Assembly (NCBI GenBank): GCA_963782055.1
Contig: CAWAIF010000003.1
Coordinates: 800,001-864,000, forward strand
DNA length: 64,000 nt
Direction of reading: 5' to 3'
Origin: an uncultured delta proteobacterium
Lineage (GTDB): Bacteria > Myxococcota_A > Polyangia > Polyangiales > Polyangiaceae
The notes beneath the pieces were generated by a model. That model did no database searches and was not told where the DNA came from. It was given only the letters and a program-made list of their open reading frames with translations. Positions 35,997 to 61,456 of this stretch are shown one piece after another. The position numbers and the translations under genes are program-made. Positions within the stretch are counted from its first letter, which is position 1. Every line of letters starts with the position of its first letter.

Positions 35997-36973
35997 TTGT
36001 CCGCCATCCCGGTGACGCGGCGATGTCGTGCCGCGTGCTTGGCCACCTCGTGCTGGAAGGTGGGCGCGTTCTCCAGCTGCTCCAGGATGCGATCGTCCTC
36101 GCTCTGCGTGCTCGGCGGCGGGGAGCCGGCGTCCGCCTCGTCCGGCTGCGGCGGGGGCTGCCCCGCGTCGGCGCCGCCGTCGTTGCCGCCACCGTCCTGC
36201 CCGCCGTCGTTGCCGCCGCCGCCGCCGTCGCCCGCGTCGCCCGCGTCGTTGCCGCCGCCGCCGTCATTGCCGCCGTCGCTGCCGCCGTCCTGGCCGCCGC
36301 CGTCGCCGGGGCCGCCGTCGCCCGGGCCGCCGTCGTTGCCGCCGTCGCTGCCGGCGTCCTTCTGCTGGTCCTCGATGCGCTCCAGCGCGATGGCTCGGTT
36401 CCACGCCGCGTCGCGGCCGACCGGATCGCCGGCGTCCGCCTGGCCCGGCGCGAGGGCGAGCGCCTTGTCGTAGGCGTCCACCGCTTGCTGGTACTCGCCG
36501 GCGAGAAAATGCAGGTTGCCCTCCAGGTAGCGCGCGCGCGCGCGCAGGTCGATGGGCTGCGACTCGTCCGCAGCGATGGCCTGGACCACGCGCAGGGCGC
36601 AGTCGATCTCGGCGAGGCGCAGCTTGCGCTGCTCCGGGTTGTCTCCGGCGTCGACCTCTTCCTCGCCGAAGCGACGCCCGTACTGCTCGCCGATGCGGAA
36701 GAGCGCGAGGCCCAGGTCGAAGCCTCCGCTGGAGCGCTGGCGGACCGCGTCGGGCACCCCGATGTTGCCGTCCTTGCACTTGCCGGTGGCGAGGTAGTCC
36801 TGGAGCAACGCGGCGGCGGCCGCGGCGTCGCCGCCGTCCCCGAGCTCGCCCATGGCGCGCTTGACCTCCGGCGACTCGCGCTCGAAGGGGCGCGACGGGT
36901 TCCACCCGCACGCGGCGAGCCAGAGCGCGGCGCACCCGCCGAGCGCCACCGAGCGCCAGACGCGCCTACGCAC
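35993..36973 (-). CDS. batC: BatC-like TPR lipoprotein with DGG-repeat tail
   Basis: Lipobox LAAC; YLEGNLHF...AVDAYDKAL...AAWNRAIA; low-complexity tail; RILEQLE...DK end. Confidence 0.7.
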   Translation of the reverse strand: MRRRVWRSVALGGCAALWLAACGWNPSRPFERESPEVKRAMGELGDGGDAAAAAALLQDYLATGKCKDGNIGVPDAVRQRSSGGFDLGLALFRIGEQYGRRFGEEEVDAGDNPEQRKLRLAEIDCALRVVQAIAADESQPIDLRARARYLEGNLHFLAGEYQQAVDAYDKALALAPGQADAGDPVGRDAAWNRAIALERIEDQQKDAGSDGGNDGGPGDGGPGDGGGQDGGSDGGNDGGGGNDAGDAGDGGGGGNDGGQDGGGNDGGADAGQPPPQPDEADAGSPPPSTQSEDDRILEQLENAPTFQHEVAKHAARHRRVTGMADK

Positions 36974-38156
36974 GGCGCGCCTCGGGGGTGGCGGGGTCCT
37001 CTGTCGCCTCGCCGCGCTTCTTCCGGCGCCGGACGAGGTCCACCAGGAGGAAGAAGAGGCTGACGGTGAAGAGAGAGGCGAACACCGCCATGATCACCTT
37101 GCCCGTCGTCCACGGCGCCATCCACGGCGTGTCGAAGATCAGCGCCTCGCTGAGCAGGAGGGCGATGGAGAGCAGCAAGGGTAGCCAGAAGATCTCGCCG
37201 TACACCGTCTCCACGCGCTCGGAGAGCTCCTCGCGCATCATCTTGGAGAGGTGAGAGGAGACCTTGTCGATGCCCGTCTCCCCGTGCTCGCTGCGCACGA
37301 TCATGCCGCCCGTGGTGGTGGCGATCTTGGCGAGCTGCGCCTCGCCGTCGGCGGAGAGCTCGGTCGTCAGCGGCTTGCCGTGCTCGTCCTTGCGGATGCC
37401 GCGGACCCGCCCGTCCGGTCCCACGTCGGGGATCACCTCGGGGGCGCGCCCGCCGATCTGCACCACGTCGATGGTGGTCCCCTCCGCCGCGCACTTCTGC
37501 GCGACGGAGAGCGGGTCGCCCTCCAGGTCCTCGCCGTCGGTGACGAGCAGGATGACCCGCACATGGTCCTTCGTCGTCGGGTCGCGCTCCAGCAGCTCCC
37601 GCGCCCGCTCCAGCGCGCGCGCGGTGGCGGTCCCCCCGACGGGCATGTCGTTCGGCTCGAGCTGCCGGAAGAACTGGGCGATGGCCGCGCCGTCGCTGGT
37701 CAGCGGGAAGCTCATCGGCTCCCCGGCGAACGCGACCGCCCCGAAGCGCGCGCCGGAGAGGTTCTGGATCATCCGGGCGACCTCCGCCTTGGCGCGCGCG
37801 ATGCGGCTCGGCACCACGTCGCGGGCGTACATGCTCTTGGAGTAGTCGAGCACCACCACCACGTCGACGTTGGTCGCCGGAATGAGGCGCGTGCCCTTGC
37901 CGTACTGCGGCCGCGCGAGGGCGAGCAGCGCGGCGGCGAGCGCCAGCACCAGCATCACGCCCTTGACCGCGCGCCGCTGCGTGGCGTCGTAGGAGGTGAG
38001 TCCGGCCACCAGGTCGGCGTCGCCGAAGCGCTTCTCCGCGCGCACCCGCGCGAAGGAGGAGACGACGAACATCGCCGCGAAGCCGACGACGAGCACCGCG
38101 CACGCGACGAAGGCGATCACCCAGGGGAAGGAGAAGAGGTCGTAGGCGAAGCGCAT
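36966..38156 (-). CDS. batB: BatB VWA-domain membrane protein
   Basis: LARPQYG, LDYSKSMYARDVVPSRI, FAGE..PLTSD, GT, VTDGEDLEG. Confidence 0.88.
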   Translation of the reverse strand: MRFAYDLFSFPWVIAFVACAVLVVGFAAMFVVSSFARVRAEKRFGDADLVAGLTSYDATQRRAVKGVMLVLALAAALLALARPQYGKGTRLIPATNVDVVVVLDYSKSMYARDVVPSRIARAKAEVARMIQNLSGARFGAVAFAGEPMSFPLTSDGAAIAQFFRQLEPNDMPVGGTATARALERARELLERDPTTKDHVRVILLVTDGEDLEGDPLSVAQKCAAEGTTIDVVQIGGRAPEVIPDVGPDGRVRGIRKDEHGKPLTTELSADGEAQLAKIATTTGGMIVRSEHGETGIDKVSSHLSKMMREELSERVETVYGEIFWLPLLLSIALLLSEALIFDTPWMAPWTTGKVIMAVFASLFTVSLFFLLVDLVRRRKKRGEATEDPATPEARRA

Positions 38157-39310
38157 CAGGGGAACCTCCTGAGCAGGAGCGCGCGCAGCGCCGCCTCGAG
38201 GAGGAGGAGCAAGACGGCCGGACCCAGGAGCAGGGGGAAGAGGTCCTCCATCGCCGCCGACTGCGCCAAGAACTTCGTCTTCTCCAGGCTGTCGAGGATG
38301 GAGTGCATGCTCTGCTCGAGGCCCTTCTTGTCGGTCGCGACGAAGGACTCGCCGCCGGTGTCGGCGGCCATCTTCTTGAGCAGCTCGGGGTTGACCGGGA
38401 AGTGCTGGCGCACGTAGCGGGGCTGGCCGAAGAGGTCGACGCCGTCCTGCACCTGCACCTCGTCGCCGTTGCCGATCTGGACGGTGTAGACGCGCACTCC
38501 CTGGGTCTGCGCGAGGTGCGTCGCGTACTCGGGCGAGATGGCCCCGGCGTTGGAGTCGCCGTCGGTCAGCAGGACGATCGCCTTCGACTTGGCGTTGGAG
38601 CGGCGCAGGCGCGCCACGCCGGTGCCCACCGCGTCGCCGATGGCGGTGCCGTTGCCGTCGATGAGGTCGAGCTCCATCTTCTGCACCAGCGTGGTGAGCA
38701 GGGAGTAGTCGAGCGTGGGCGGGGAGAGGACGTACGCCGCCTTGCCGAAGACCACCACGCCGATGCGGTCGGTCTTGCGGCGGCTGATGAAGTCCAGGAT
38801 GACGTCCTTCGCGGTGTCCAGGCGCGTCGGGCGCTTGCCGTTCTCGTGGACGTTCGCCCCGCCCACCGTCGCCGACGCCGGCGCGTCCATCACCGCGCGC
38901 ATGGACCCGGAGAGGTCCAGCACGATGACGATGTCGATGCCGCGCTCCCCCGCCTTCTCGCCGTGGAGCACGTTCTGCGGCTGCGCGAGCGCCATGAACG
39001 CGACCGTGAGCGCCGCGCCGCGGAGCATGCCGGGGAGGTAGCGGAGGCGCGTGCGCCAGCCGCGCGGGCCGCCCGTGAGCCCCGCGAGCGTGGAGAGGAA
39101 GACGCGCGGCGCGCGCCCCTCCCCGCCGACGGTCATCGCGTAGGTGACGATGGGCGGCAACAGCAGCGCGCCGAGCAGCCACCACTTCGCCGTCCACTTC
39201 ACGGCGAGCCACTCGTCGCCGCGGGCGAGGAGCGGGTAGAGCAGCGCGAGGGCGACGAGCACCCACCGCCCGAGCTCCACCAGGATGGCGCGCACCCACG
39301 GGCGGCTCAC
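38156..39310 (-). CDS. batA: BatA VWA-domain membrane protein
   Basis: LAQP, GIDIVIVLDLSGSM, DRIGVVVFG, GTAIGDAV, LLTDGDSNAG.ISP, TGGESF.A. Confidence 0.9.
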   Translation of the reverse strand: MSRPWVRAILVELGRWVLVALALLYPLLARGDEWLAVKWTAKWWLLGALLLPPIVTYAMTVGGEGRAPRVFLSTLAGLTGGPRGWRTRLRYLPGMLRGAALTVAFMALAQPQNVLHGEKAGERGIDIVIVLDLSGSMRAVMDAPASATVGGANVHENGKRPTRLDTAKDVILDFISRRKTDRIGVVVFGKAAYVLSPPTLDYSLLTTLVQKMELDLIDGNGTAIGDAVGTGVARLRRSNAKSKAIVLLTDGDSNAGAISPEYATHLAQTQGVRVYTVQIGNGDEVQVQDGVDLFGQPRYVRQHFPVNPELLKKMAADTGGESFVATDKKGLEQSMHSILDSLEKTKFLAQSAAMEDLFPLLLGPAVLLLLLEAALRALLLRRFP

Positions 39311-40503
39311 GCGTCACCTCCGGGGTCGGCGGGCGGTGGCGCCGCGGGCGCGGTCGGCGCGACGGGCGGGGTCGTCGGCGGCTCGGGCGGCGGCACCGTC
39401 GCCGCTCGCGCGGGGGACAGCGGCGGCATGGTGGTGCGCACGATCTTCTCGCCCGTCTCCAGCGCCTTGCGGCAGTCCTCGAGCGAAGGCGTGACGTTGG
39501 CGAACTTCACCAGATCGCACTCGCCGAGGAAGGCGACGATCTCCGGGAGCTGGCCGCCGGTGAGGGCGGAGCGGCGCAGCTCGGCGATCATCTCGTCGGT
39601 CGTCGACTCCAGACCATCGAAGCCGTAGCGCCCGCCGAGGTACTCGCGCAGGGCGTCGTTGACGCGGTCGAAGTAGTCGCCGAAGCGGCCGACGTCGAGC
39701 AGCCCCGCGTGGCGCACCTCGTCCAGCTTCTCCAGGGCGACCTCCCACGGCGGGCGCGGCGGAGGGGGCGGCGGCGCGGGCCGGGGGCGCGTCAGCCAGC
39801 GGCGCAGGATGTACGCGAGGATCGCGCCGGCGAGCAGGCCGACGCCCACCCACGTCGCCGCGCGCTTGAGGGCCGTCCACTCCTCGCGCTGCGGGCGCGG
39901 CGGCGGGTTGGCCTTCGGCTTGGCGTCGGGCGTCTCGGCGGTGGGGTCGTCGATGGTGATGTGGTGCTCGTGGGTGCAGACGGTGGCGACGTCGCCGCTC
40001 GCCCGCGAGACCGAGATGGGCAGCGGCGGCAGGGTGAGCACGTGACGGCCGGGCTTGTCCGGCAGCGCGACGAGCGGGAGCTCCAGGGTCGTCGTCACCT
40101 TCCCCGCCTTCTTCGGGTCGGGGGCGGAGACGGTGAGCCGGGCCCCCGCGCTGCCGTCCTGGTCGGGGAACGCCCAGCCGGAGGTCTTGAGCTGCTTGGC
40201 CACGTCGGAGGTCGATTGCAGGGAGAGGCCCGCGGGCAGGACCGTCTCGCCCTTGCCGTGCAGCACCTTCACGACGAGCGTCGCCGCGTAGCCGCTGCGC
40301 CCCCTGTCGGGGAGCGTGTCGGTGACCTCCGGTCGCTGCGCGCCTTGCGGGATGACCTCCACGCACCCGCCGATGGACGCGCCCTTTGGCGGAGGGGGCG
40401 GCGGCGGGGGAGACGCGGCCGACGGAGACTGCGCGAACGCCGGCGCGGCGGCGCCGGCGCCGAGCGCGAGGACCAACGACAGCAGGCCGCGCGCGCGGGT
40501 CAT
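39307..40503 (-). CDS. Membrane protein of the moxR-bat cluster (DUF4381-like position)
   Basis: Signal peptide, Ig-like domain, TM, PPWEVALEKL, LREYLG.RYG...ESTT.E, CDLVKFA. Confidence 0.75.
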   Translation of the reverse strand: MTRARGLLSLVLALGAGAAAPAFAQSPSAASPPPPPPPPKGASIGGCVEVIPQGAQRPEVTDTLPDRGRSGYAATLVVKVLHGKGETVLPAGLSLQSTSDVAKQLKTSGWAFPDQDGSAGARLTVSAPDPKKAGKVTTTLELPLVALPDKPGRHVLTLPPLPISVSRASGDVATVCTHEHHITIDDPTAETPDAKPKANPPPRPQREEWTALKRAATWVGVGLLAGAILAYILRRWLTRPRPAPPPPPPRPPWEVALEKLDEVRHAGLLDVGRFGDYFDRVNDALREYLGGRYGFDGLESTTDEMIAELRRSALTGGQLPEIVAFLGECDLVKFANVTPSLEDCRKALETGEKIVRTTMPPLSPARAATVPPPEPPTTPPVAPTAPAAPPPADPGGDA

Positions 40504-41438
40504 CGGGTGCGCACCCTCCGGGCGCGCCGGGCGAAGAGATCCTGCAGCGGCTTGACGAACGAGGCGTTGGTGTGGACCTCCACCGCGTCCATGCCCAGCT
40601 TGAGGAAGAGCTGCCGGCGCGCGGCCGCGAGCGCGCGCATGGCGTGGGCATGATGCGCGCGCACGCGCGGATCGCCGGTGTCGACGACGATCGTCGCGCC
40701 GCTCTCCAGGTCCTCGAAGGTGGCCAGGCCCACGTCGGGCAGCTCCATGTCGCGCGGATCGACGAGCACCACCGGGATGACGTCGTGCTTGGCCGCGGCG
40801 AGCGCCAGCGCGCGCTCGTAGCCCTGCGCGAAGAAGTCGCTGATGACGAAGGCGATGCTGCGGCGGCGCGCGACGCCCACCAGCGCCTCCAGCGCGCCCT
40901 TGAGGTCGGTCGCGGGGCCGAGCGGGTTCATCGCCGCCTTGGCGTGGACCTCCTCGCGGGCGTGAGTGCCGATGTTCGGATCGAAGCCGAGGATCTCCCG
41001 CACGACGCGCATGACGTGCTTCTCGCCCTTCTTCGGCGGCACGAGGCGCTCCACCTTGTGGGTGGCGAGGATCATCCCGACCCGGTCGTTGTTGCGGATG
41101 GCGCTGAAGGCCAGCAGCGCAGCCACCTCCGAGGCGACGCGCACCTTGGGGGCGCGGCGCGTGCCGAAGCGCTCGCTGGGGGAGAGGTCGACGACCAGCA
41201 TGACGGTCATCTCCCGCTCCTCGACGAACACCTTGACGAAGGTGTCGTTCATGCGGGCGGAGACGTTCCAGTCGATGCTGCGCACGTCGTCGCCGGGCTG
41301 GTAAGGGCGCACCTCCCGGAAGGCGAGGCCCTGGCCCTTGAAGCTCGAGGTGTAGGTGCCCGAGAGGTTCTCCGTCGCGAGGCGCGCGGTGTGAATCTCG
41401 ATGGTGCGCAGGGCGGCGAGGAGCTCCTTCGGGATCAT
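40500..41438 (-). CDS. DUF58 domain protein
   Basis: FKGQGLAFREVRPYQPGDDVRSIDWNVSAR, VKVFVEERE, DLSPS, NDRVG, ISDF. Confidence 0.92.
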   Translation of the reverse strand: MIPKELLAALRTIEIHTARLATENLSGTYTSSFKGQGLAFREVRPYQPGDDVRSIDWNVSARMNDTFVKVFVEEREMTVMLVVDLSPSERFGTRRAPKVRVASEVAALLAFSAIRNNDRVGMILATHKVERLVPPKKGEKHVMRVVREILGFDPNIGTHAREEVHAKAAMNPLGPATDLKGALEALVGVARRRSIAFVISDFFAQGYERALALAAAKHDVIPVVLVDPRDMELPDVGLATFEDLESGATIVVDTGDPRVRAHHAHAMRALAAARRQLFLKLGMDAVEVHTNASFVKPLQDLFARRARRVRTR

Positions 41439-41587
41439 CGAGGACGGCAGACCTTGGGGGGTGGGCGCGCGGGCGCTCTTGAACCCGGCCCGGGTAGACA
41501 GCCGGACGCTGGAAACTATTCCGCTTCGGGGCCCGGAGGATAGGCCAAAAGCCGGGCCGAGGCCCGGGGGCGTGCTAGGTGCAGCGC

Positions 41588-41986
41588 ATGAAGCAGTCGG
41601 CAGGGCTGTTGCTGTACACCGGGGTGGGGGAGGGGCGCCGGGTGCTGCTGGTTCACGCCTCCGGCGCGTACAACCGCGCCTCGCCGTACTCCATCCCCAA
41701 GGGTGAGCCGGAGGGGGACGAGCCGCTGGAGGCCGCCGCCCGCCGCGAGACGATGGAAGAGGTGGGGGTCGAGGTGAAGGGGCCGCTCGTCTCGCTGGGG
41801 CACGCCGACTACCAGAAGACGCGCAAGCGCGTGCACGCGTGGGCCGCGCCGCTGCCCGAGGGGGCGACGCCGCGGTGCGCGTCGTGGGAGATCGACAGGG
41901 CGGAGCTGGTGACGATGGCCCGCGCCCGCGAGCTCCTCCACCCCGACCTGCGCGTCTTCCTGGACGGCCTCACCGCGCTCCCCTGA
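41588..41986 (+). CDS. NUDIX hydrolase
   Basis: Complete Nudix box GEPEGDEPLEAAARRETMEEVGV; SAGLLLY, VLLVH, SIPKG, EIDRA. Confidence 0.9.
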   Translation: MKQSAGLLLYTGVGEGRRVLLVHASGAYNRASPYSIPKGEPEGDEPLEAAARRETMEEVGVEVKGPLVSLGHADYQKTRKRVHAWAAPLPEGATPRCASWEIDRAELVTMARARELLHPDLRVFLDGLTALP

Positions 41987-42008
41987 TGGGCGGCCGCCGC
42001 CATCCTCA

Positions 42009-42995
<987 letters not shown>

Positions 42996-45551: not shown

Positions 45552-45624
45552 CCGCGCGCCCACGCGCCGGCGGGGCGTGGCCCCAGCCGCCGCGGCCGTC
45601 GCGCCGTGCTACGTTCCGCGGGCC

Positions 45625-46386
45625 ATGGACCGCCACCGACTGCAGGAACTGCTCGAGCGTGTCTCCCGGGGGGAGGAGAGCGTGGACACGGCGCTGGGCG
45701 TGCTCAAGAACCTGCCCTTCTCCGACATCGGCTACGCGGTGGTGGATCACCACCGCGCGCTGCGCCAGGGCGTGGCGGAGGTGATCCTCGGCCAGGGCAA
45801 GACGGCGGAGCAGATCGTGGGGGTGGCGCGCGAGCTGGCGCGCGCCGGCAGCAACGTGCTGGTCACCCGCGTGGCGCCCGACCTCGCCGCCACCGTGCGC
45901 GTGTCGCTGCCCGACATGCGCTACGGCGAGCTGGCACGCACCCTGACGCTGGAGCAGGCGGCCATCCCCGCCCTCTGCGAGCAGGCCGTCGCGCTGGTCA
46001 GCGCCGGCACGAGCGATCTGCCCGTCGCCGAGGAGTGCGCGGAGACGCTGCGCGTCCTTGGCGTCCCGTGCGAGCGCGTCTTCGACGTGGGCGTCTCCGG
46101 CATCCACCGCATCCTGCACCGCCGCGAGGTGCTCGAGCGCGCGCCGCTGGCCATCGTCGTCGCCGGCATGGAGGGCGCGCTCGCGAGCGTGGTCGGCGGC
46201 CTGGTCGACATCCCCGTCATCGCGGTGCCGACGTCGGTCGGGTACGGCGCGGCGTTCGGCGGCGTGGCCGCCCTGCTCGGGATGCTGACGAGCTGCGCGT
46301 CCGGAGTGACGGTGGTGAACATCGACAACGGGTTCGGCGCGGCGTTCGCGGCGGCGAGGATCCTTCGCGGCCGGAAGAGGGCGTGA
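45625..46386 (+). CDS. larB: Nickel-pincer cofactor biosynthesis carboxylase/hydrolase
   Basis: DHHRALRQG..EVI..GKT, AGTSDLPVAEE, DVGVSGIHR, AGMEGALASVVGG, PTSVGYG, SCASG..VVNIDNGFGA. Confidence 0.93.
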   Translation: MDRHRLQELLERVSRGEESVDTALGVLKNLPFSDIGYAVVDHHRALRQGVAEVILGQGKTAEQIVGVARELARAGSNVLVTRVAPDLAATVRVSLPDMRYGELARTLTLEQAAIPALCEQAVALVSAGTSDLPVAEECAETLRVLGVPCERVFDVGVSGIHRILHRREVLERAPLAIVVAGMEGALASVVGGLVDIPVIAVPTSVGYGAAFGGVAALLGMLTSCASGVTVVNIDNGFGAAFAAARILRGRKRA

Positions 46387-47669
46387 TGGGGCACGAGGGC
46401 CACGGGCACGAGCACGACCACGGGCACGAGCACGACCACGGGCACGGACACGAGCACGAGCACGACCACGGACAAGAGAAGCTGGGGAACCGGGCGGGGA
46501 GGGGGAAGGTGCTGTTCCTCGATGCGCCCAGCGGGATCGCGGGGGACATGACCATCGCCGCCCTCATCGACCTCGGGGTGCCGGTGACTGTGCTCGAGGA
46601 GGCCCTGGAGGCCGTCCCGCTCACGGGCTACCACGTGCACTTCTCCCACCGGGAGCGGAGCGGCATCGTGGCCACCACCTTCGACGTGCACCTGGACTCG
46701 CCGCAGCCGGAGCGGACGTACGGCGGCATCCGCGAGATGCTGGAGAAGACGGAGCTGCCCGAGGCGGTGAAGGCACGCGCCCTCGGCACCTTCCGGCGGC
46801 TCGCCGAGTCGGAGGCGCACGTGCACCGCATGCCCATCGACGACGTGCACTTCCACGAGGTGGGCGCGATCGACGCCATCGTGGACGTGGTGGGGAGCGC
46901 GGCGCTCCTCGCGTACCTGGACGCGGAGGTGCGCGTCTCCCCGCTGCCGATGGGCCGCGGCTTCGTCAAGGCGCGGCACGGCACCCTCCCGCTCCCGCCG
47001 CCCGCCGTGGTGGACTGCCTCCGCGGCTTCTCCACCTACGACGGCGGGCTGGACTTCGAGTTCGTGACGCCGACGGGCGCCGCCATCGTCGCCGCCAACG
47101 CCGCGCGCTCCGAGCGCTGGCCCGACATGACGCCGGAGGCGACAGGCTGGGGCGCGGGCGCGGCCGAGCTCGCCGATCGCCCCAACCTTCTGCGTGCGGT
47201 GCTGGGCGAGCCGACCCTCCGCGCGGGGGAGGCCCACACGCACGTGGTGCTGGAGGCCAACCTGGACGATGCCACCGGCGAGCTCGTCGGCGCCGCCATC
47301 GAGTCGGTGCTCGCCGCCGGCGCGCTGGACGTGTGGGCTGCCCCGGTGACGATGAAGAAGGGGAGACCAGGCGTCACGCTCGGCGCCCTCGCCCCGGCGG
47401 CGCGCGCCGACGCCGTCACGTTCGCCCTGCTGCGCGACACCACCACCCTCGGCGTGCGCCGGCACGGCGTCTCGCGCACCGAGCGACCCCGCCACGTGGT
47501 CGAGGTGGAGACCGCCTTCGGACCCATCCCCGTCAAGGTGGGTGAGGGCCCGTACGGTCCGCCTCAGGTCAAGCCCGAGTTCGACGCCTGCCTCGCCGCC
47601 GCGCGTACGCATGGGGTGACGGTGCGGGAGGTGCTCCAGGCCGCGCTGGTGGCGTTCGCCGCACGGTGA
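46386..47669 (+). CDS. larC: Nickel-pincer cofactor nickel insertase with N-terminal His-rich tract
   Basis: TGATG coupling with larB; SGIAGDM, AESEAHVH...VHFHEVGAIDAIVD, TPTGAA, EANLDD, MKKGRPG, TTTLGVR, KPEFD. Confidence 0.93.
   Translation: MGHEGHGHEHDHGHEHDHGHGHEHEHDHGQEKLGNRAGRGKVLFLDAPSGIAGDMTIAALIDLGVPVTVLEEALEAVPLTGYHVHFSHRERSGIVATTFDVHLDSPQPERTYGGIREMLEKTELPEAVKARALGTFRRLAESEAHVHRMPIDDVHFHEVGAIDAIVDVVGSAALLAYLDAEVRVSPLPMGRGFVKARHGTLPLPPPAVVDCLRGFSTYDGGLDFEFVTPTGAAIVAANAARSERWPDMTPEATGWGAGAAELADRPNLLRAVLGEPTLRAGEAHTHVVLEANLDDATGELVGAAIESVLAAGALDVWAAPVTMKKGRPGVTLGALAPAARADAVTFALLRDTTTLGVRRHGVSRTERPRHVVEVETAFGPIPVKVGEGPYGPPQVKPEFDACLAAARTHGVTVREVLQAALVAFAAR
46392..46472 (+). repeat. 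CAC-GRN hexamer repeats encoding an (H-x)n tract
   Basis: HEGHGHEHDHGHEHDHGHGHEHEHDHG, 13 His in the first 28 residues. Confidence 0.85.
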
Positions 47670-47738
47670 TCCAGGCGTGGTGATATGCTGCGGCCGCGCG
47701 TCACGACGGCGCGCCGAGAACCATTCAGGGTTGGACAC

Positions 47739-48857
47739 ATGAACTGCCCGCAGTGCAACACGCCGGCAAAGGCCACCGACAAGTTCTGCAACTCGTGTGG
47801 ATTCCTGCTGCAGCAGGCCGCGCCCGCGGCGGCGCCTGCCGCAGGCGGTCCGCCCCCCGCGTTCGGCGGTCCGCCGCAGGGCGGCGCGCCGCCCGCGCAG
47901 CAGCAGGGTTTCGGCGCCCCGCCGGGCTTCGGCGGCCCCCCCGCGCCGCCTCCGTACGAACCGCCGCCTGCGTTCGGCGGGGCTCCTCCGCAGCAGCAAG
48001 GCTTCGGTGGTCCCCCTCCGCAGCAGCAAGGCTTCGGTGGCCCTCCGCAGCAGCAAGGCTTCGGCGGTCCCCCTCCGCAGCAGCAAGGCTTCGGCGGCCC
48101 CCCTCCGCAGCAGCAAGGCTTCGGCGGCCCCCCTCCGCAGCAGCAAGGCTTCGGTGGTCCCCCTCCGCAGCAGCAAGGCTTCGGTGGTCCCCCTCCGCAG
48201 CAGCAAGGCTTCGGTGGTCCCCCTCCGCAGCAGTACGCGCCGCCGCCGCAGCAGCAGTACGGGGCTCCTCCTCCGCAGCAGCCCGCGTACGGCAACGCGC
48301 CGGCCGCCCAGTGCGCGCAGGGCCACGAGATCCCGCCCGGCGCGAGCTACTGCGCGATGGGCCATCCCCTCGCCGTCCAGGGCATGGACCAGTACGCCGG
48401 CGGCCAGGCGCCGCCCGCCTTCGGCGGCGCCCCGCAGGGCTTCGCCCCGCCGCCCGCCGGCCAGCCGCAGAGCTTCGGCAGCGCGCCCACCGCGCCGCCG
48501 GAGCAGTCCGCGCCGCAGCTCACCTCCACCTCGCTCCGCGGGTTCCTCGTCACCTTCCAGAGCAACGGGGCGGGTGACTTCTGGCCTCTCAAGGGCGGCC
48601 GGGTCGTCGTCGGCCGGGCGCAGTCGGGCGATGGTCTGGACATCCCGCTCGCCGACGCCACCATCTCCTCCCGCCACGCCGCCTTCGTGGTCGATGGTCT
48701 CGCCGGCACCATCCTCATCGAGGACACCGGCTCCACCAACGGGACCTACGTCAACGAGGAGCACATCGGGATGAACGGCCGCCGCAATCTGCGGGACGGC
48801 GACAAGGTCCGCTTTGGCGGGTACACGACCATCGTCAAGATCATCGGTAACGTGTGA
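47739..48857 (+). CDS. Zinc-ribbon / low-complexity / FHA domain protein
   Basis: CPQC...FCNSCG; PPPQQQGFGG repeats; CAQGH..YCAMGH second ribbon; FHA GR...SSRHA...DTGSTNGTYVN..LRDGD. Confidence 0.9.
   Translation: MNCPQCNTPAKATDKFCNSCGFLLQQAAPAAAPAAGGPPPAFGGPPQGGAPPAQQQGFGAPPGFGGPPAPPPYEPPPAFGGAPPQQQGFGGPPPQQQGFGGPPQQQGFGGPPPQQQGFGGPPPQQQGFGGPPPQQQGFGGPPPQQQGFGGPPPQQQGFGGPPPQQYAPPPQQQYGAPPPQQPAYGNAPAAQCAQGHEIPPGASYCAMGHPLAVQGMDQYAGGQAPPAFGGAPQGFAPPPAGQPQSFGSAPTAPPEQSAPQLTSTSLRGFLVTFQSNGAGDFWPLKGGRVVVGRAQSGDGLDIPLADATISSRHAAFVVDGLAGTILIEDTGSTNGTYVNEEHIGMNGRRNLRDGDKVRFGGYTTIVKIIGNV
47985..48233 (+). repeat. Coding tandem repeat, 30-bp unit x8 plus partial
   Basis: Unit CCTCCGCAGCAGCAAGGCTTCGGYGGYCCC; the second copy is 27 bp; encodes PPQQQGFGGP. 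Confidence 0.95.
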
Positions 48858-48858
48858 G

Positions 48859-51385
48859 ATGGAGAGAAGAGAGCCGCAGCACCCCAGGTTCAACCCGTTC
48901 GTGAGGTGGGCGGTCGCCGTCGCGATGGCGGCCGTCGCACTCGCCCTGCCACGCGCTGCCCTCGCCGTCCCGGAGGCCCACATCCTCCGGATCGACCCGC
49001 GCGCCGGCATGACCGGGGGCGCCCCGCTGCTGACCACCGTCGTGGAGGTGGTGCAGTTCAACTCCCCGTCGGAGGCGCTCGCCCCCTGCAACAACCTGAA
49101 GGGCAACGCTGCGCTCGATTGCTGGTCGAGCACCGTGGAGAAGGACGGCGTGCTGTGGAGCCCCTTCCCCTTCCCGGAGGCGAACGCGCTCTTCACCGCC
49201 AGCGTGGCCGGCGCCGATGTCCCCGCGAAGCTGGAGGGTCACGCCGAGAAGTGGGGTGACGCGGTCAAGGCGGGCGAGCCCAACGTCGGCACCGCGTGGG
49301 TCGTGTCGCTCGACGCCTCCAACGGCATGGGCGCCCGCTTCGCCGACGCCAAGCAGGTCGCCTACTCCTTCATCCAGGCGATGCAGCCCAACGACCTGAT
49401 GGAGCTGGTCGTCTTCGACTCGCGCGATCACCAGTACCTCGCCGACTCGAAGTGGAAGACCTACAAGGAGCGCAACGATCTGGTGAAGGTCCTCGACGGC
49501 GCGGCCGTCAGCCACGACGGCGGCGACCGCTCCCTCTTCTCCATCATCAAGGGCGTCATCGGCGACGCGTTCGGCAACCTGGGCAACTACTCCGCGCCGC
49601 AGAGCATCCCGCTGCACCAGGCGCTCGTCGTGCTCTCCAACGGCACGAGCAAGGCGGACGCGAGCACCACCGGCCCCGTGGCCGAGGCCTTCAGCGACTA
49701 CCTCAACAAGGGCCGCTTCCCGGACGACAACACCGCGCAGGTGAAGACGCCGCTGCCGGTCATCTCCATCTGGTTCCCCAACGCGTCGAGCTACGTCGGC
49801 AACCTCTATCGCAACAACGAAAACCAGTTCATGCAGCAGCTCGCCAACGTGAAGATTGGCGGGTTCTTCTCGGTGGTGCGGCAGGGGCAGGGCCAGCAGC
49901 ACGGCCCCACCATCGTCAAGGCGGTGAAGAAGCGCTTCGACGCCATGTACCTGGTGAAGTGGCGCCTCGCCTGCCTCAACCCCTCGGTGGAGCAGAGCTT
50001 CGCGCTCAACTTCAAGAACACCAAGCCGCAGATCGTCGGCGACTCCAGCTTCAAGGACGTGCCCATCGGCATCGACCCCACGCAGTGGCCGCTGGACATC
50101 GACGAGCAGCGCACCAAGGCGGATGCCGAGGCGAACCCGCTCTACCCGGGCGGCACCTTCAAGGTCTACGGCGACTTCTGCTGGGGCGGCGACAAGAACC
50201 GCGCGGAGGCCTACTTCGTGCCCGCCGGCACCAAGCCGGACCCCAACGCCTCCAGCCCCGACCCCGCCACCGCCAAGAAGGCGATGCAGTCGCTCATCCA
50301 GCAGAACATGCGGGGCGGCGCCATCGAGGCGGGCGACACCTTCGTCACCTTCAAGGTCCCCGACGAGGACAAGATCCTCGACGGCACCGGCGACGCGACC
50401 GTCGCGCACGTCATCGTCTACGACAACGGGGCCAAGCGCGCGAGCGGCCACGACGAGAAGTCCATCCTCACGCTGAAGGCGACCAAGAAGCCCATCCCCT
50501 GGCTGCTCTTCGCCGGCATCGGCGGCGGCGTCGTGGTGCTCGGCCTGCTCATCGTCGTCATCATGCGGGGTGGCGGCGGCGGTGGTGGCGGCGGTCGCCG
50601 GCGCGGCGCGGCTCCTCCCCCCAGCCGATCGTGGCCGGCGGCGTGCCGCCCTACGGGGGCGGTGGCGGCTACGGTCCCCCGGGCGGCGGCGGCTACGGGG
50701 GCGGTGCGCCGCCCTACGGCGGCGGTCCCCCGGGTGGCGGCTACGGTCCACCTCCCGGAGGAGGAGGCTACGCGCCAAACCCTCCGTAGGCGCCCCGTCT
50801 CCACTGGAGGCTCGCGCGGCATCGGCGGAGAGCCCGGGGATCGGCGGCGCCGTCGCGGCGAGTCTTCCTGTGCCGGCCGCGGTCGCCCGCGCTCCGCAGC
50901 CGTCCTCCCCGGCGATGGTGGAGGTGCGCTGTCCGGCGTGCGGCGCGCCCACGATGGTCACGCCCGGGCAGTCTTCCTTCTGCTTCTCGTGCGGACAGCC
51001 GGTCCCCCCCCAGCTCGCCTCCGCCGGACAGTATCCGCTCACCGGCGCCATGCCCGCTCCCACTCCGCCCCCCAACCCGTACGCCTCCGCCGGTAGCGCC
51101 GTGCTCGCCGGCGCCTCGGGCACGTACACCGTCCGATCCGGAGGGGACGTGCTGGTGGGGCGCGACCCCGCGCAGTGCGCGATTCACCTGACCGAGCCGC
51201 GCGTCAGCGCCGTGCACGCCCGGCTCAAGCTCGAAGGAGGCCAGCTCATGGTGCGTGACGAGGCCTCCAACAACGGCGTGTGCGTCGCCGGCCAGCGCAT
51301 CCCCCCCGGCGCGTGGACCCCGGTGCCGAGCGGCACCGCGCTGCGCTTCGGTCCGGTGGAGTTCGCGGTGAGGCTCGAGCCGTGA
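48859..51385 (+). CDS. Signal peptide-VWA-TM-Gly/Pro/Tyr-rich-zinc ribbon-FHA protein, interrupted by two apparent 1-nt deletions
   Basis: VWA-like VSLDASNGM...VVLSNG; TM WLLFAGIGGGVVVLGLLIVVIM; adding one C in the C-run at about 50617-50622 gives QPIVAGGVPPYGGG...; adding one C at about 50789 (TAG to TAC G) gives PYGAPSPLEAR...CPACG..CFSCG...VGRDP..VSAVHA..SNNG. Confidence 0.75.
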
Positions 51386-52600
51386 TGCCCGGACCCTCGC
51401 CGGGCGTCGAGGTCGCGCTCCGGACCGATCCGGGACGCGACCCGGACAAGCAGGTCAACGAGGACGCGTGCGGCGATCGCGCCACGCCGTTCGGGCACCT
51501 CGTCGTCGTGTGCGACGGCATGGGCGGACACGAGGGCGGCCGCGAGGCGTCGAGCGCCGCGCTGGAGTCCATCCTGCGCACCTTCGAGATCGCCACGCCG
51601 GGCACCGACCCGCGCGAGGTGCTTCGCCTCGCCGTCGCGCGCGCCAACGACGTGGTCTTCGAGCTGGGCATCGGCAAGGAGGCGGGCGCGCGCCCGGGCT
51701 CCACCGTCGTCGCCATCCTGGTCCACGACGGCGGTACCGAGGTGGCTCACGTCGGCGACAGCCGCTGCTACCGCGTCCACCAGGGGCAGATCGCGCAGAT
51801 CACCAAGGACCACTCGGTGGTGCAGAAGCTGGTCGACGCCGGCGCGCTCACCCCCGCGCAAGCCGCGCACCACCCCGACGCCAACCGCATCACGCGCGCG
51901 CTCGGCAGCAAGCTCGGCGTGGAGGTGGAGCTCGCCGGCGCGCCGCTTGGCCACGTGGCGGGCGACACCTTCGTGCTCTGCTCCGACGGCCTGAGCGATC
52001 TGGTGGAGCCGGAGGACATCCTTCGCATCGTGACCTCCGCGCCGCCGGAGCAGGCCGCCGGGCAGCTCGTCGATCTGGCCAACGCGCGCGGCGGACACGA
52101 CAACATCACCGTCGCGGTGTGCCGCCCGCGCGAGACGGCGAAGGCGTCGACGTCGCTCGCCGCGGGGGCCACCGCGAGCAGCCCGCGCGTGGCGCCCACC
52201 ATCCCGGCCACCATCGCCGAGTCCGGGCCCGCCCTGCCCGCGCCGCCGCCCACCGGCGAGCCGCGGGAGGATTCTGCCGAGCGCCCCGCCGCAGCGTTCC
52301 CGCAAGCCGCCGCTCGGCGTGCTCATCGGCGTGGGTCTGGTGCTGGCCGGCGCCGCGGCCGGCGGATACGCCGTCTGGCTGCACGAGGAGGGGGAGGAGC
52401 ACCGCCACCACCACGACGTCCCCGCGGCGTTCAAGACCGACCTCGCGCCGGCGACGACGACGCAGGCGGCGTCGGCCGTCCCGCCCCCGCCGCCTCCGCC
52501 GGTCGTCGACGTCGACGCGGAGCCGCTGCTCCCACTGGCCGAGCCCGATGCCGGCCATCCGAGACACCACCACCACCGTCCGGGGTCCGAGCCGGAGTGA
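51385..52600 (+). CDS. PP2C-family Ser/Thr phosphatase with C-terminal TM, frameshifted near 52265
   Basis: NEDA, VCDGMGG, GST, HVGDSR, LCSDGL, GHDNIT; removing one base near 52262-52270 continues ILPSAPPQRSRKPPLGVLIGVGLVLAGAAAGGYAVWL...HHHH to stop 52600. Confidence 0.85.
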
Positions 52601-52622
52601 CTTGTTGTACCCTCGGGGCGCC

Positions 52623-55600
52623 ATGACTCGACGCTCCCGTTCGCGCCTGCTCCTGCTCGCCGCCACGTCCATCGCGGCGGTGGGCGCCCTCGTCGCCGCG
52701 TGCGCCCCCGCCGCCCCCGAGCCCGTCGTCTCGGGACGCGCGATCCCGCTGACGCGCGACGCGGGGCCGCCCGCGCCGCCCTTCGTCACTCCCTCGCGGT
52801 GGTCGCTCGCTTATTCCCCCCGGTGGCGTCCGCAGACGTCGGTCACCGTCGGCGACGGCGTCACGCTCTGGGTGGGCGAGGGCGGCGAGCGCTGGCTGCA
52901 GAGGTCCTCGGGGATCGAGGCCGCGGCGACGCTGCTCCCCGAGCGCATCGTCGGCGTGCAGCGCGCCGATGCCGGGTACCGCTTCGTCGGCGAGTCGGGC
53001 GCCGTGTACCTCGCGCGCGAGGCACTGGGTGGCGCCCGCCGCGTCTCCGACGCCGTGCCCGGCGCCCGGTCCATCGCGATCGGCAAGAGCGCCATCGTCA
53101 TCGCCACGCACGAGGGCGATCTGGTCCGCAGCGCCGACGCGGGGCACACCTGGACGAAGGTGAAGTTGCCGCAGAGCGACGGCATCGCGGTGAGCGTCGC
53201 GATGAACGGCGCGGCGGGCATCGTGCTGGCGGCGCCGCAGCGCATCTACGGCACCAAGGACGACGGCCTGACGTGGTCGCCGGTCAAGAGCCCGGCCATC
53301 GGCGCCACCCGCGTGACCTCCCACGACGGCGCGGTCTGGCTGGAAGGCGATGGCGACAACCTGCGCTTCGACCCGGCGTGGGGGACCTTCAGCGCCGCCA
53401 CCTCCGCGCACCACGCGGGCACGGTCAACCTGGTCGCACACGACGATCACTCGGTCACCACCACCAGCCGCTACCTGGACGGCAAGCGCGCGCTGGAGAT
53501 CGACGGCACGCCTTCGCACGAGTGGACCGTCGCCGTCGGGGAGCTCGGGGCGATGCCCGCGCCACGGCCGTTGCCCGAGCTCGTCGGCTGCGAGTTCGTC
53601 AACGGCGCCATCCGCGGCAACACCGTCGTGCTCTCGTGCGACGCGCGCGGCACCGTGGCGGACGGCATCGACCGCGACGCCTCCGCGCCGCACACCTATT
53701 ACAACACCGGAGCCCGCAGCTCCGGGGCCCCCGACGGCGGCACCCTGGGCTTCGTGACCAAGATCTACCGGAGCGACGACGGCGGCCGAACCTACCGCGA
53801 CGACGCGACGGTCGAGGGCGGCATCCCGCAGGCCAACGACCAGGCCATCGCCCTGGGTGGTGGCGACTGGCTCTACCTCGGCATGCGCTGCGGCACCGGT
53901 TACTCGCCCGCGTGCCTCCCGGCGCGCGTCCGGCCGAACCGCGCCAACGGCTGGACCGAGCTCCCTCAGGGCGATCGCCGCGCGGGCAACGTGCGCTTCG
54001 CCGGGAGCGTGCTCGACACCAGCGTCTACAGCATCGGCGTGCGCGACGAGGAGGCCTACCTCTTCCAGTGGAAGGCGGGCGCGGGCGCGCCCGAGCCGCT
54101 CGGCAGGATCGCCGGGTCGCTCGAGGCACGGGCGGTGTCCCTGTCCATCGACGACGACGGCGCGGTGCGCGGCTTCGTCCGCGGCGACGGCAAGCCCCAC
54201 GGCTTCGTCTACCGGCAGGGGCAGGGCATGAGCACCCTCGACCTCCCCGCCGAGGCGACGCGCGCCGCCTTCTCCGGCGCGCGCGGCATCGCCATCGACC
54301 GCCGCGGCAAGACGTTCGAGACCGACGACAGCGGCAAGACCTGGGTGCCCGCCGCCTTCCCAGCCTTCGTCACCGACATCGACCAGTGCACCACCTTCGG
54401 CTGCACGACCAACCGTGGCTTCCGCGTCGGCTGGGACATGGCCGCGCCGCCGCCCGCCGCGAGCCAGCCCGCGCCATCGCTGCTGTACGCCAAGCCGCTA
54501 CGCTGCTCGGCCAAGGACAAGTGGGTCACCCTGGGCGGCGGCACCATCCCCAGGGTCGCCAGCGTCGATCACGGGGCCTCCCGCTGGGTGATGCCCGTGC
54601 GCGGGAAGGACGGCCGCATCACCCTGCTGCTCTCCAAGCGCGGCGACCCGACGACCAAGACCACGTCGCTCTCCATGATGGGCCCGGCCCCGGGGCCGCC
54701 CCTGCACGGCTCCGGCACCACCATGCACGTGCAGCCGGAGGGCGTGGTCGTCCTTCGCTACAGCTATCTCCGCAAGCGCACCGGCCTCGGCCGCTACAAC
54801 CCGGTGGACGCGCAGATCGCCTGGTACCGCGACACCACGGGCAAGGTCGGGCACGGCAAGGCGCTCGGGAACCCGGCCTTCCGCGTCAACCGCGACCCGC
54901 AGGACGGCTACGACGCGGAGGTCCCTGCCTACCGCAGGATGCCCGAGGTGCTCTCGCTCCAGCCGAACGGCGTCTACTTCCACTCGCGCGCCTATTCCGA
55001 CGAGGAGGCCGACGACGACGAGCCCGCGAAGCCCGCTCCCTTCGTGCTGCTGCGGGACAACGGGCGGACGGAGAAGCTCAAGTTTCCCAAGGCCGACGAC
55101 GATGGCATGACGATGGTGGCGCCCCTGGACGGCTCGCCGGACGTGCTCGTCGCCAACGACCAGGTGTGGAGCCTCTACCGGCCCAACGGCGCCAAGGCGA
55201 TCCGCTGGGCCGTGATGGGCGGCCTGGAGGATGACGACGCGCCCGTCAACCTCGTCTCTCTCGGCGGCAAGCCGGTGCTCGTGGCCACGGCGCGCGACGC
55301 GGGGCGCGCCTGGGGGATCCGCCTCGGCGCCACGCCCGACCTGGGGCCGATCTTCGCCCTCCCCACGCAGAAGTCGCTGGGCGACCAGCCCACGCCCTGC
55401 GACGGGGCGGTGCCCCACGATCCCTCCGTCCTTCGGTTCGACGCCCCGTGGGTGGTCGGCTCACGCCACCCGGTGATCGTGGACGTGGACGGCGTGGCCC
55501 ACGTGCTCGCCACCGATCGCGCCGAGGTGCGCGGGAGCGCCACCAAGCCCGGGGCCTGCGTCGCCGCCTTCGACGCCACGCTCCCCTCCGGCGTGGACGA

Positions 55601-55826
55601 CGACGACGACGACTGGGGCGCGCTCGTCTTCATGGACGATCTCGCGCACTCCCTCATCTTCCGCGCGGACACGACCGACTGGCCGGCGCAGGTCTCGGTC
55701 CGACCGATGGAGTGTCAGTTCACGGCCGGGCCGCTCCCCAGGTCCTTGCAGGACGCGCCCGGCTTCACCTCCGTCGCGTCCAAGAATCTCGGGGGCATCC
55801 CCGTCGTCCGGCCCCTGCGCCGCTGA
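52623..55826 (+). CDS. Large lipoprotein with BNR/Asp-box beta-propeller repeats
   Basis: Lipobox VAAC; SADAGHTW, TKDDGLTW, SDDGGRTY, TDDSGKTW Asp-boxes; CTTFGC..RVGW. Confidence 0.75.
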   Translation: MTRRSRSRLLLLAATSIAAVGALVAACAPAAPEPVVSGRAIPLTRDAGPPAPPFVTPSRWSLAYSPRWRPQTSVTVGDGVTLWVGEGGERWLQRSSGIEAAATLLPERIVGVQRADAGYRFVGESGAVYLAREALGGARRVSDAVPGARSIAIGKSAIVIATHEGDLVRSADAGHTWTKVKLPQSDGIAVSVAMNGAAGIVLAAPQRIYGTKDDGLTWSPVKSPAIGATRVTSHDGAVWLEGDGDNLRFDPAWGTFSAATSAHHAGTVNLVAHDDHSVTTTSRYLDGKRALEIDGTPSHEWTVAVGELGAMPAPRPLPELVGCEFVNGAIRGNTVVLSCDARGTVADGIDRDASAPHTYYNTGARSSGAPDGGTLGFVTKIYRSDDGGRTYRDDATVEGGIPQANDQAIALGGGDWLYLGMRCGTGYSPACLPARVRPNRANGWTELPQGDRRAGNVRFAGSVLDTSVYSIGVRDEEAYLFQWKAGAGAPEPLGRIAGSLEARAVSLSIDDDGAVRGFVRGDGKPHGFVYRQGQGMSTLDLPAEATRAAFSGARGIAIDRRGKTFETDDSGKTWVPAAFPAFVTDIDQCTTFGCTTNRGFRVGWDMAAPPPAASQPAPSLLYAKPLRCSAKDKWVTLGGGTIPRVASVDHGASRWVMPVRGKDGRITLLLSKRGDPTTKTTSLSMMGPAPGPPLHGSGTTMHVQPEGVVVLRYSYLRKRTGLGRYNPVDAQIAWYRDTTGKVGHGKALGNPAFRVNRDPQDGYDAEVPAYRRMPEVLSLQPNGVYFHSRAYSDEEADDDEPAKPAPFVLLRDNGRTEKLKFPKADDDGMTMVAPLDGSPDVLVANDQVWSLYRPNGAKAIRWAVMGGLEDDDAPVNLVSLGGKPVLVATARDAGRAWGIRLGATPDLGPIFALPTQKSLGDQPTPCDGAVPHDPSVLRFDAPWVVGSRHPVIVDVDGVAHVLATDRAEVRGSATKPGACVAAFDATLPSGVDDDDDDWGALVFMDDLAHSLIFRADTTDWPAQVSVRPMECQFTAGPLPRSLQDAPGFTSVASKNLGGIPVVRPLRR

Positions 55827-60154: not shown

Positions 60155-61456
60155 ATGGCGACGAAGGGCTGGATCAAGAAGGCCTCCTGGCCGGTGCTGG
60201 CGCTGGGGCTCGCGTCCCCGCTGTTCATTCACTGCGGGGGGAACATCCCGGGTGTGAACAACATCCCTGGCGGGGAGAACCTCCCGGGCGGCGCCAACGC
60301 GCCGAAGTGCCCGGACATGGCGGACGCCGACGGCGCGCTCGATTTCGACTGGGCGGGCAACTACAAGCTCGACGCCAAGGTCGCCAACCAGGTCAAGGGC
60401 GGTGTCGCCGCCTCCATCGAGATCAAGCAGGTCTCCGACATGATCGACGCGGACCTGAAGACGGGCTGCGGCGGTCTGGCGAAGGACCTCGGCGCGACGG
60501 GCGACTTCAAGACCGGCGAGGAGGCCTGCAAGGCCGCCATCAAGGTCGTCGGCGACGTCAAGGCGAAGCTGGGTGGCAAGCTCACCGTCGCCCTGAAGAT
60601 CGATCCGCCGAAGTGCGGCGCCTCGCTCGACGTGGTCGCCGACTGCGCGGCCAAGTGCGACCCCAACATCCAGCCCGGCAGCGCCAAGGTGGAGTGCGAG
60701 CCCGGCAAGCTGCAGGGCCAGTGCTCGGCGCAGTGCTCCGGCTCCTGCGACGTCGAGGGCGGCGCCAAGTGCGACGGCCAGTGCTCCGGCAAGTGCGACG
60801 CGCAGGTCAGCGGCACGTGCAGCGGCACGTGCAACGGCAAGTGCGACGGCAAGAACTCGCACGGCTCCTGCGCGGGCAAGTGCGACGGCAAGTGCGACGG
60901 CCAGATCCAGGGCGAGTGCAAGGGCTCGTGCTCCGGCTCGTGCAAGCTCAAGGCGAAGGCGGAGTGCAAGGGCACCTGCAGCGGCAGCTGCTCGGCCGAG
61001 ATGAAGGCCCCCAAGTGCACCGGCGAGGTGAAGCCCCCGTCGATGAGCCCGGAGTGCAAGGCGCACTGCGACGCGAAGGCGGAGGCCAAGGTGGAGTGCA
61101 CCCCGGCGCACGTCGCCGTGGCGCTCTCCGGCGGCGCCGACGCCAAGCTCCAGGCCAAGTTCCAGATGGCCCTGGAGAAGAACCTGCCCCTCATCGTCAA
61201 GGTGGCCATGGGCATGGGTGACCGCGTGACCAAGCTGGCCGGCGACGTGAAGGATGTCGTCGGTGGCGTGCAGGGCGCGGTTCAGGGCGCGGTCTCGGCC
61301 TCGCCGATGATCGGCGCGCAGCTCACCTCGTGCGTGGCGGCTCCCTTCAAGGGCGCTGTCGACGCCGCGGCGGCGGTGCAGGCCAACGTGAAGGTCTCGG
61401 TCAACGTCTCCGCGAGCGTGTCCGCCAAGGGCAGCGCGAGCGGCAGCACGAAGTAA
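60155..61456 (+). CDS. Cys-rich lipoprotein with six C-x3-C-x3-C triplets
   Basis: SD AAGGAG at 60144-60149; lipobox-like FIHC; CSAQCSGSC, CDGQCSGKC, CSGTCNGKC, CAGKCDGKC, CKGSCSGSC, CKGTCSGSC. Confidence 0.85.
   Translation: MATKGWIKKASWPVLALGLASPLFIHCGGNIPGVNNIPGGENLPGGANAPKCPDMADADGALDFDWAGNYKLDAKVANQVKGGVAASIEIKQVSDMIDADLKTGCGGLAKDLGATGDFKTGEEACKAAIKVVGDVKAKLGGKLTVALKIDPPKCGASLDVVADCAAKCDPNIQPGSAKVECEPGKLQGQCSAQCSGSCDVEGGAKCDGQCSGKCDAQVSGTCSGTCNGKCDGKNSHGSCAGKCDGKCDGQIQGECKGSCSGSCKLKAKAECKGTCSGSCSAEMKAPKCTGEVKPPSMSPECKAHCDAKAEAKVECTPAHVAVALSGGADAKLQAKFQMALEKNLPLIVKVAMGMGDRVTKLAGDVKDVVGGVQGAVQGAVSASPMIGAQLTSCVAAPFKGAVDAAAAVQANVKVSVNVSASVSAKGSASGSTK

Follow-up and report, generated by a model that had tools for sequence, protein, structure and literature searches.

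A probable programmed -1 ribosomal frameshift that toggles the FHA domain of a myxobacterial VWA membrane protein

In a stretch of 64,000 nucleotides (nt) from an uncultured delta proteobacterium of the Polyangiaceae (GenBank assembly GCA_963782055.1, contig CAWAIF010000003.1, positions 800,001 to 864,000; hereafter the window), a gene for a membrane protein with an exported VWA domain probably carries a programmed -1 ribosomal frameshift that toggles a C-terminal FHA domain on this protein. The gene, gene 2 in what follows, is the second of four consecutive genes on the forward strand, all of which sit where an initial annotation of the window had placed them. In the proposed mechanism, a single mRNA would give a default FHA-less form of about 643 amino acids (aa) and a minor full-length form of about 842 aa that includes a Zn ribbon and the FHA domain. 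Pairing of the 16S rRNA to a GGAGG element and a downstream hairpin would hold the ribosome, while tRNA-Asn and tRNA-Pro(GGG) move back from AAC CCU onto AAA CCC, so that the UAG stop codon is bypassed. In related genera the slip would take place at C CCU UUA, in either polarity, or in the +1 direction at UUU-Y after the Zn ribbon, and each version would take the FHA domain off a share of the molecules. The shift rate would then set the share of receptors that can be recruited into phospho-threonine-dependent complexes, whose putative partners are a soluble FHA protein, a membrane PP2C phosphatase and a triple-FHA ABC transporter.

Gene 2 spans three frames, with breaks at a run of six C and at an Asn-Pro-Pro-TAG ending (50787-50789). 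Its features in the window are the following:

48859..50789, + strand: frame-0 product of gene 2, with signal peptide, ectodomain, transmembrane (TM) segment (~50497-50566), G/P/Y tail and NPP-stop ending; FHA-less
49252..49950, + strand: VWA domain (model residues 96-328), with predicted beta-rich segments on both sides and a degenerate metal ion-dependent adhesion site (MIDAS)
50617..50622, + strand: C6 run, a frame break confined to the source genome and likely an assembly error
50763..50767, + strand: Shine-Dalgarno (SD)-like GGAGG, 9 nt ahead of the heptamer; the 16S tail of the source genome has the complement
50777..50783, + strand: slippery heptamer A AAC CCT, in X XXY YYZ phase
50783..51385, + strand: open reading frame (ORF) in frame -1, 200 codons, with linker, Zn ribbon (50930-50992), YPLTGxM threonine motif (51032) and FHA domain
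50789..50851, + strand: predicted stimulatory hairpin, beginning 5 nt past the heptamer, with basal helix GGCGYY/RRCGCC

The initial annotation had joined these frames by indel repair and read the gene as a fusion of exported VWA domain, TM segment, G/P/Y-rich tail, Zn ribbon and FHA domain. All of these parts and a signal peptide were recovered, and the full-length fusion is found in frame in 61 of the best 119 database homologues, whereas the repair itself is valid for the C6 run only. Neither the C6 break, at which the 643-aa length counts an X, nor a further break in the PP2C gene downstream was found in any relative; both fall within runs of C and probably stem from faulty assembly. The NPP-stop break, on the other hand, is conserved. 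In six other genomes of the genus, some of them with k141-named contigs, frame 0 closes with CCA AAC CCT CSG TAG, and the Zn ribbon and FHA domain lie in frame -1. A pattern scan of metagenomes returned 26 matches, of which 18 were unrelated and 8 were gene 2, in each case with the ribbon placed in frame -1. The remaining database homologues among those 119 show an NP[PR] ending (23), the ribbon followed by an off-frame tail (23), a PL(x) ending (1) or other short forms (11). Over 193 columns, the -1 ORF of the source genome itself has 56% identity with the tail of the in-frame homologue P0024. The assembly is not generally broken, since of 21 gene regions compared with relatives only 1, gene 2 itself, shows a frame change. 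The view behind the indel repair, that the gene is an ordinary fusion whose breaks all stem from assembly errors or private mutations, thus fits the C6 run, probably the PP2C break and the 61 in-frame homologues, but recurrence of the same junction in the 6 genomes, the 8 metagenome matches and the 23 database proteins refutes it for the NPP-stop break, which is better explained as a conserved recoding signal; as an account of the whole gene we give it almost no credence.

Comparisons were made on a set of 172 oriented loci from which 10 duplicates had been removed (L203 probably repeats L042 and was kept in). The heptamer A AAC CCT is unchanged in 17 of 17 aligned rows, 7 of which were chosen by this pattern, and in 20 of the 20 loci in which the FHA domain lies in frame -1 an in-phase heptamer stands 0-1 codons ahead of the frame-0 stop: A AAC CCT in 7, C CCT TTA in 12 and, at the downstream site, C CCT TTC in 1. 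Across 62,381 ectodomain codons used as a control, in-phase C CCT TTA was not found and A AAC CCT occurred once; TTA accounts for 17 of 4,411 ectodomain Leu codons, and among the invariant degenerate residues of the ectodomain in those groups (91 and 53), none has a third base that is always A/T. The 55 nt downstream of 41 sites fold with a median z of -2.5 (24 of 41 below -2), compared to -0.09 for controls (20 of 246 below -2), and SD pairing of -6 kcal or better was detected at 34 of the 41 sites versus 62 of the 246 controls. The basal helix, which starts 5 nt past A AAC CCT, pairs in all 18 sequences, and one of its columns shows a compensatory C-G/T-A exchange. The source genome encodes tRNA-Pro(GGG), tRNA-Asn(GUU) and one tRNA-Leu(UAA), and its 16S tail contains CCUCC. 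An Rfam search of positions 47600-52700 gave no matches at E<=1, and at none of 22 other places inspected in the source genome that match the SD-plus-heptamer or the site-2 pattern (see below) does the copy lie at a frame junction.

These features agree with the cassette rules described for bacterial -1 signals such as those of dnaX and the IS3 family, which share with gene 2 an in-phase X_XXZ_ZZN heptamer, an upstream SD-like element, a structure 4-10 nt downstream (5 nt here) and long and short isoforms, predicted ones for gene 2, from one gene (PMC4066793). The known signals use A_AAA_AAG, whereas gene 2 uses A_AAC_CCU and C_CCU_UUA. Also unlike dnaX and IS3, the gene 2 family combines both polarities and a +1 site, and its product is a membrane signalling protein.

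Recoding signals are restricted to one subclade, where they were found in 76 of 85 loci (79 tree rows and 6 later loci), and neither signal was detected in the 74 in-frame loci outside it. The 85 loci comprise 20 that are split in the -1 direction, 17 split in the +1 direction, 24 in frame with a heptamer, 15 in frame with site 2, 7 without a signal and 2 without FHA. Trees built with FastTree imply that the frame state changed at least 10 times. A single clade of -1 splits was rejected by the approximately unbiased (AU) test on a 40-row quick tree (p-AU 4.9e-5; 11 of 40 rows, the group being defined from sequence and not from the tree).

The off-frame FHA domain keeps its phospho-threonine-binding motif in 32 of 34 split loci, one of the misses being at a contig end. 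The pN/pS ratio of the -1-frame FHA half is 0.37, compared to 0.35 for the ectodomain, and in every split group the median for the off-frame FHA (0.37-0.49) can be set against that of the ectodomain (0.16-0.48); the off-frame FHA is thus under purifying selection in every split group. Plain FHA-less genes also occur (L007, L063, L177, L183, and L178 beside two FHA-bearing paralogues), and as every variant of the signal would remove the FHA domain from part of the molecules, both products appear viable. The genome with L178, G164, carries three paralogues in all, the other two being L179 and L180. A different reading of the junction is that a pause or rare-codon checkpoint (a hungry UUA codon or an SD pause) stands between the domains, and that the split genomes make the short protein only, their FHA half being a slowly decaying relic or rescued by accidental slippage. 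The five natural FHA-less forms would suit such a checkpoint, and the UUA codon in an inter-domain linker that regulates Streptomyces adpA offers a precedent (PMC10732093). A relic does not, however, account for an off-frame FHA and ribbon that are under purifying selection and remain stop-free across pS values of 0.4-0.6, and the motif of the source genus lacks UUA, so that we hold this explanation to be highly improbable.

Programmed frameshifting would also make sense of the heptamer in genes that have no need of it to reach the FHA domain. In the 24 in-frame loci that retain it, a slip would truncate the protein; in L002 a -1 slip truncates immediately (AAA CCC TAA), and most of the 24 carry a -1-frame stop codon. 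An independent check starts from the expectation that in-frame genes which truly shift have a selected stop in frame -1. In the PNP motif, the Pro before Asn is encoded by CCT, which creates a -1 TAA, in 16 of 17 in-frame loci with C CCT TT[AT], versus 1 of 41 elsewhere. As the 17 loci are largely one genus, this preference counts as one strong event and not as 17.

A second site (site 2) lies after the ribbon, where 17 loci need a +1 shift. The junction is TTT followed by C or T in 17 of 17, with TTT representing 139 of 1,563 ectodomain Phe codons, and an (A)GGAGG(T)-like element able to pair back on the junction lies 19-25 nt ahead of it. Of the 15 in-frame loci that retain the element, 11 have a stop codon in the +1 frame no more than 6 codons away. 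Seven database proteins (P0032, P0043, P0051, P0065, P0078, P0079 and P0084) end exactly in GAGSG(A/G)PPLFP-stop, right after the site-2 Phe-Pro, and possibly represent a third form with the shift at the stop codon, judging from their endings; DNA encoding these seven APPLFP-stop proteins was not found in the 383 genomes of the family at E<=1e-270.

An extension of the frameshift reading to both sites holds that this subclade repeatedly evolved -1 (A_AAC_CCU, C_CCU_UUA, C_CCU_UUC) and +1 (UUU-Y) signals, in both polarities, which would set the ratio of FHA-bearing to FHA-less protein; that the +1 arrangement of SD, hairpin and UUU-Y would be an undescribed recoding class in which the hairpin loops in a distant SD; and that recoding would replace duplication of the kind seen in G164. 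We consider the chances of this extension evenly balanced. The motifs could instead be places where RNA polymerase realigns on X3Y3 runs (AAACCC, CCCTTT, TTTCCC), gaining or losing one base with the aid of a hairpin whose end falls within the run. Such transcriptional slippage is in keeping with the X3Y3 form of all three motifs and with a site-2 hairpin that precedes and includes the run. Known transcriptional slippage nevertheless uses a hybrid of roughly 9 nt, longer than the 3+3 nt runs found here; codon phase follows the direction needed (X XXY YYZ for -1, XXX YYY or TTT-Y for +1), which a polymerase would not require; and L014, L119 and L204 retain TTT-Y alone. On this evidence we regard realignment of the polymerase as very unlikely.

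Several observations weigh against programmed frameshifting. The loci are related and the counts are not independent, and the two private breaks could mean that the source genome's own copy is damaged. The 63-nt hairpin of the source genome is no more stable than shuffled sequences (z +0.4 and +0.68), which is also true of the folds at several split loci. Covariation is thin: in the g76-rich group 97% of cells pair and one pair covaries, and a single compensatory column was reached by 39 of 500 shuffles in that group; the hairpin helix, moreover, also encodes conserved residues. At site 2 the hairpin has a median z of only -1.7, an SD at ~19-25 nt is unlike known +1 signals, and 5 of 14 tested +1 loci have a start codon directly behind the SD. 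Given the unusual spacing and these five starts, site 2 is less secure than site 1. Of the 12 split loci with C CCT TTA, several have no SD and 6 have a possible SD-backed start ahead of the ribbon. Efficiency may be low, because CCN and mixed UUA A-site codons belong to the less shifty classes in E. coli, where C_CC.U is among the active tetramers (PMC4066793).

The start codons raise the question of whether the split loci are simply two genes, the Zn-ribbon/FHA half being made separately by internal initiation or re-initiation, with the SD-like element as its ribosome-binding site, hidden by the hairpin until upstream translation takes place. The ability of the SD-like element to pair back on the junction would suit such a switch, as would the starts in the five +1 loci (ATG, GTG or TTG, 4-5 codons ahead of the junction, with a strong SD) and those in the six C CCT TTA loci; where the stop is TGA, the overlapping -1 codon is GTG, CTG or TTG. 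The start is not conserved, however. An SD-backed start codon ahead of the FHA was found in 0 of 7 loci of the source genus, and L004, L008 and L111 have no start codon of any kind ahead of the ribbon or the junction. Separate initiation would also leave unexplained the phase-locked heptamers, their retention in in-frame genes and the selected -1 stop, and we judge it unlikely.

With regard to the protein, the predicted signal peptide and single TM segment would put the VWA domain of gene 2 outside the cell. A structure model of the ectodomain (pLDDT 88.3) matches solved VWA/I domains with Z of 17-18 and a root-mean-square deviation of 2.4-3.0 over about 180-194 residues; the top Foldseek match is 8s05, archaeal ArnAB, and the target-normalised TM-score to integrin I domains is 0.70-0.73. 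The MIDAS motif (DxSxS...T...D) is degenerate: over 78 rows the initial D is present in 78, the first S in 42, the second S in 13 and the last D in 6, with N in 55. According to the model the ectodomain has a VWA-like fold of Rossmann type, and MIDAS conservation gives nothing for integrin-type metal binding; the label "integrin-like" proposed in the initial annotation is therefore true of the fold and not of the metal site. Four ectodomain cysteines are invariant. The C-terminal part of the ectodomain was modelled separately (pLDDT 76.5). Pfam and NCBIfam scans gave no match on the ectodomain, VWA clusters retrieved for it from the ESM Atlas scored below 0.9, which is a lead only, and a homodimer prediction gave no answer (score 0.00) and counts neither way. 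Of 79 loci with a ribbon, 66 have an [FY][PAG][LVP]T motif ahead of the FHA, and in 53 of these the +3 residue is hydrophobic (M, L, V, I or F). The threonine of [FY]PLTGxM beside the FHA domain is likely a self-binding (cis) phosphosite, by analogy with GarA/OdhI and Rv1747. Two named homologues of gene 2 belong to Pendulispora; in the Pendulispora proteins P0071 and P0090 the site-2 peptide is in frame, and a shorter product would be expected there as well.

Of 383 genomes of its family, 347 contain gene 2, nearly always as a single copy; the tally takes in the unpublished genomes G239, G281 and G282, whose sequences were left unused. In an order-wide sample the gene was seen in 55 of 59 genomes of the source family and in all 7 of family f10, whereas the 134 genomes outside these two families gave none. 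Its neighbours in the window are the following:

47739..48857, + strand: gene 1, soluble protein with CxxC Zn ribbon (47745-47798), GFGGPP(P)QQQ repeats, twin CxxGH motif (48312-48365) and C-terminal FHA
51385..52600, + strand: gene 3, PP2C phosphatase with linker, TM segment and short His-rich outer tail; frame break near 52279-52290
52623..55826, + strand: gene 4, Asp-box lipoprotein of 1067 aa, a neighbour in this lineage only

Of 163 loci, 148 have gene 1 ahead of gene 2, and a PP2C gene comes next after gene 2 in 102 of 141; in 5 of the 7 loci of the source genus (L003, L004, L005, L006 and L008) the adjacent PP2C gene is absent. As a fourth member the operon usually has a triple-FHA ABC transporter gene (domain order three FHA, ABC ATPase, ABC2 membrane part), found within 6 kb in 83 of 126 loci and missed by the initial annotation. 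In the source genome an intact copy lies just past the window end (G000:C3:864122-867136, L142), ~8 kb from gene 4, and shares 63% identity with its counterpart immediately behind the operon in relatives. A kinase match was found in 7 of the 126 loci that have at least 6 kb downstream, in line with the earlier proposal that the kinase is encoded elsewhere. There is thus a real, conserved kinase-less operon of FHA, VWA-TM-FHA, PP2C-TM and triple-FHA ABC transporter genes. Gene 4, which had been counted in the cluster, is a local neighbour outside the conserved operon, because it lies within 6.5 kb of gene 2 in only 8 of 126 loci. Our best guess for the pathway is a phospho-threonine-controlled assembly around an Rv1747-type ABC transporter, which the membrane PP2C would reset and in which the kinase would act in trans.

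Gene 1 proved to be the soluble Zn-ribbon, low-complexity FHA protein that had been described, with ribbon, FHA and 9 GFGGPP repeats; the CxxC ribbon is present in 126 of 146 gene-1 ORFs. Its twin CxxGH, a second putative metal-binding motif, occurs in 58 of the 146. The PP2C of gene 3 keeps its catalytic motifs, whereas the TM anchor and His-rich tail also ascribed to it are reached only via the frame change near 52279-52290, which was seen in no relative. In gene 4 the lipobox and four Asp-box motifs were confirmed, Pfam BNR/Vps10 matches fall below cut-off, and the beta-propeller is a reading from the Asp-box motifs.

The magnesium chelatase subunit ChlD carries a vWA domain, the archaeal ArnB is cytoplasmic, and the actinobacterial fhaA-fhaB-pstP locus includes the pknA/pknB kinases; each invites comparison with the gene 2 operon. 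Like gene 2, chlD is a cellular gene whose split and fused forms alternate between genera, with recoding in an inter-domain linker (PMC3711429, PMC9227772), but there a poly-A type signal separates enzyme subunits, whereas in gene 2 the VWA would be in both forms and the FHA toggled. The Sulfolobus ArnA-ArnB-PP2A system (PMC6509490, PMC12852372) shares a Zn finger-linker-FHA protein, an architecture that gene 1 fits, a vWA protein, a phosphatase and a kinase in trans. Unlike ArnB, the VWA of gene 2 would lie outside the cell, connected through the membrane to an FHA domain of the same protein, and is thus not a cytoplasmic partner of the ArnAB kind. The actinobacterial locus (PMC6554272) shares the order of a soluble FHA protein with a G/P/Q/Y linker, a membrane FHA protein and a PP2C-TM, and the parallel drawn in the initial annotation stands as far as a membrane PP2C after two FHA genes is concerned; it differs in the large VWA ectodomain of gene 2, in the adjacent kinases, rodA and pbpA, none of which was seen here, and in the FhaB equivalog model, which scores 34-45 bits against a cut-off of 125. 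The parallel is an analogy only. The Rv1747-type FHA-ABC transporter (PMC3138270) is like the usual fourth gene, and a Deinococcus vWA-kinase-FHA-PP2C operon (bioRxiv 10.64898/2026.01.23.701218) shares the vWA/FHA/PP2C grouping; both operons include their own kinase, and the accessible portions of these two sources mention no recoding. The type VI secretion system (T6SS) model TagH scores 29 bits against a cut-off of 120, and no T6SS genes were recognised in the 14 loci listed, in which no systematic scan was made.

To our knowledge, programmed frameshifting in non-mobile bacterial genes is limited to a handful of cases (dnaX, prfB, copA, chlD). No description of the present recoding was found in the literature on FHA, frameshifting and myxobacteria/Sorangium; the main text of PMC3711429 contains no Sorangium, Myxococc or FHA, and its supplementary cluster tables could list the gene-2 family. 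If true, the toggle would represent bacterial isoform control of a signalling domain, akin to eukaryotic splicing, and its natural variants of motif, direction and polarity would form a comparative series on how recoding signals arise and flip. Databases now hold many gene-2 proteins as truncated hypotheticals.

Directly upstream of the operon in the window are larB-like and larC-like genes for nickel insertion (45577-47669, + strand); across loci the upstream neighbour is larC in 58 of 139 and rplS in another 58 of 139. A Bat-type cluster 5 kb upstream (33310-42995, - strand) encodes a MoxR AAA+ protein, a DUF58 protein, two VWA proteins (BatA/BatB-like), a TPR protein and BatD. Further downstream, positions 60155-61453 (+ strand) encode a protein with Cys-rich CxGxCxGxC repeats, as is typical of these myxobacteria, whose N-terminus may be of the lipoprotein type.

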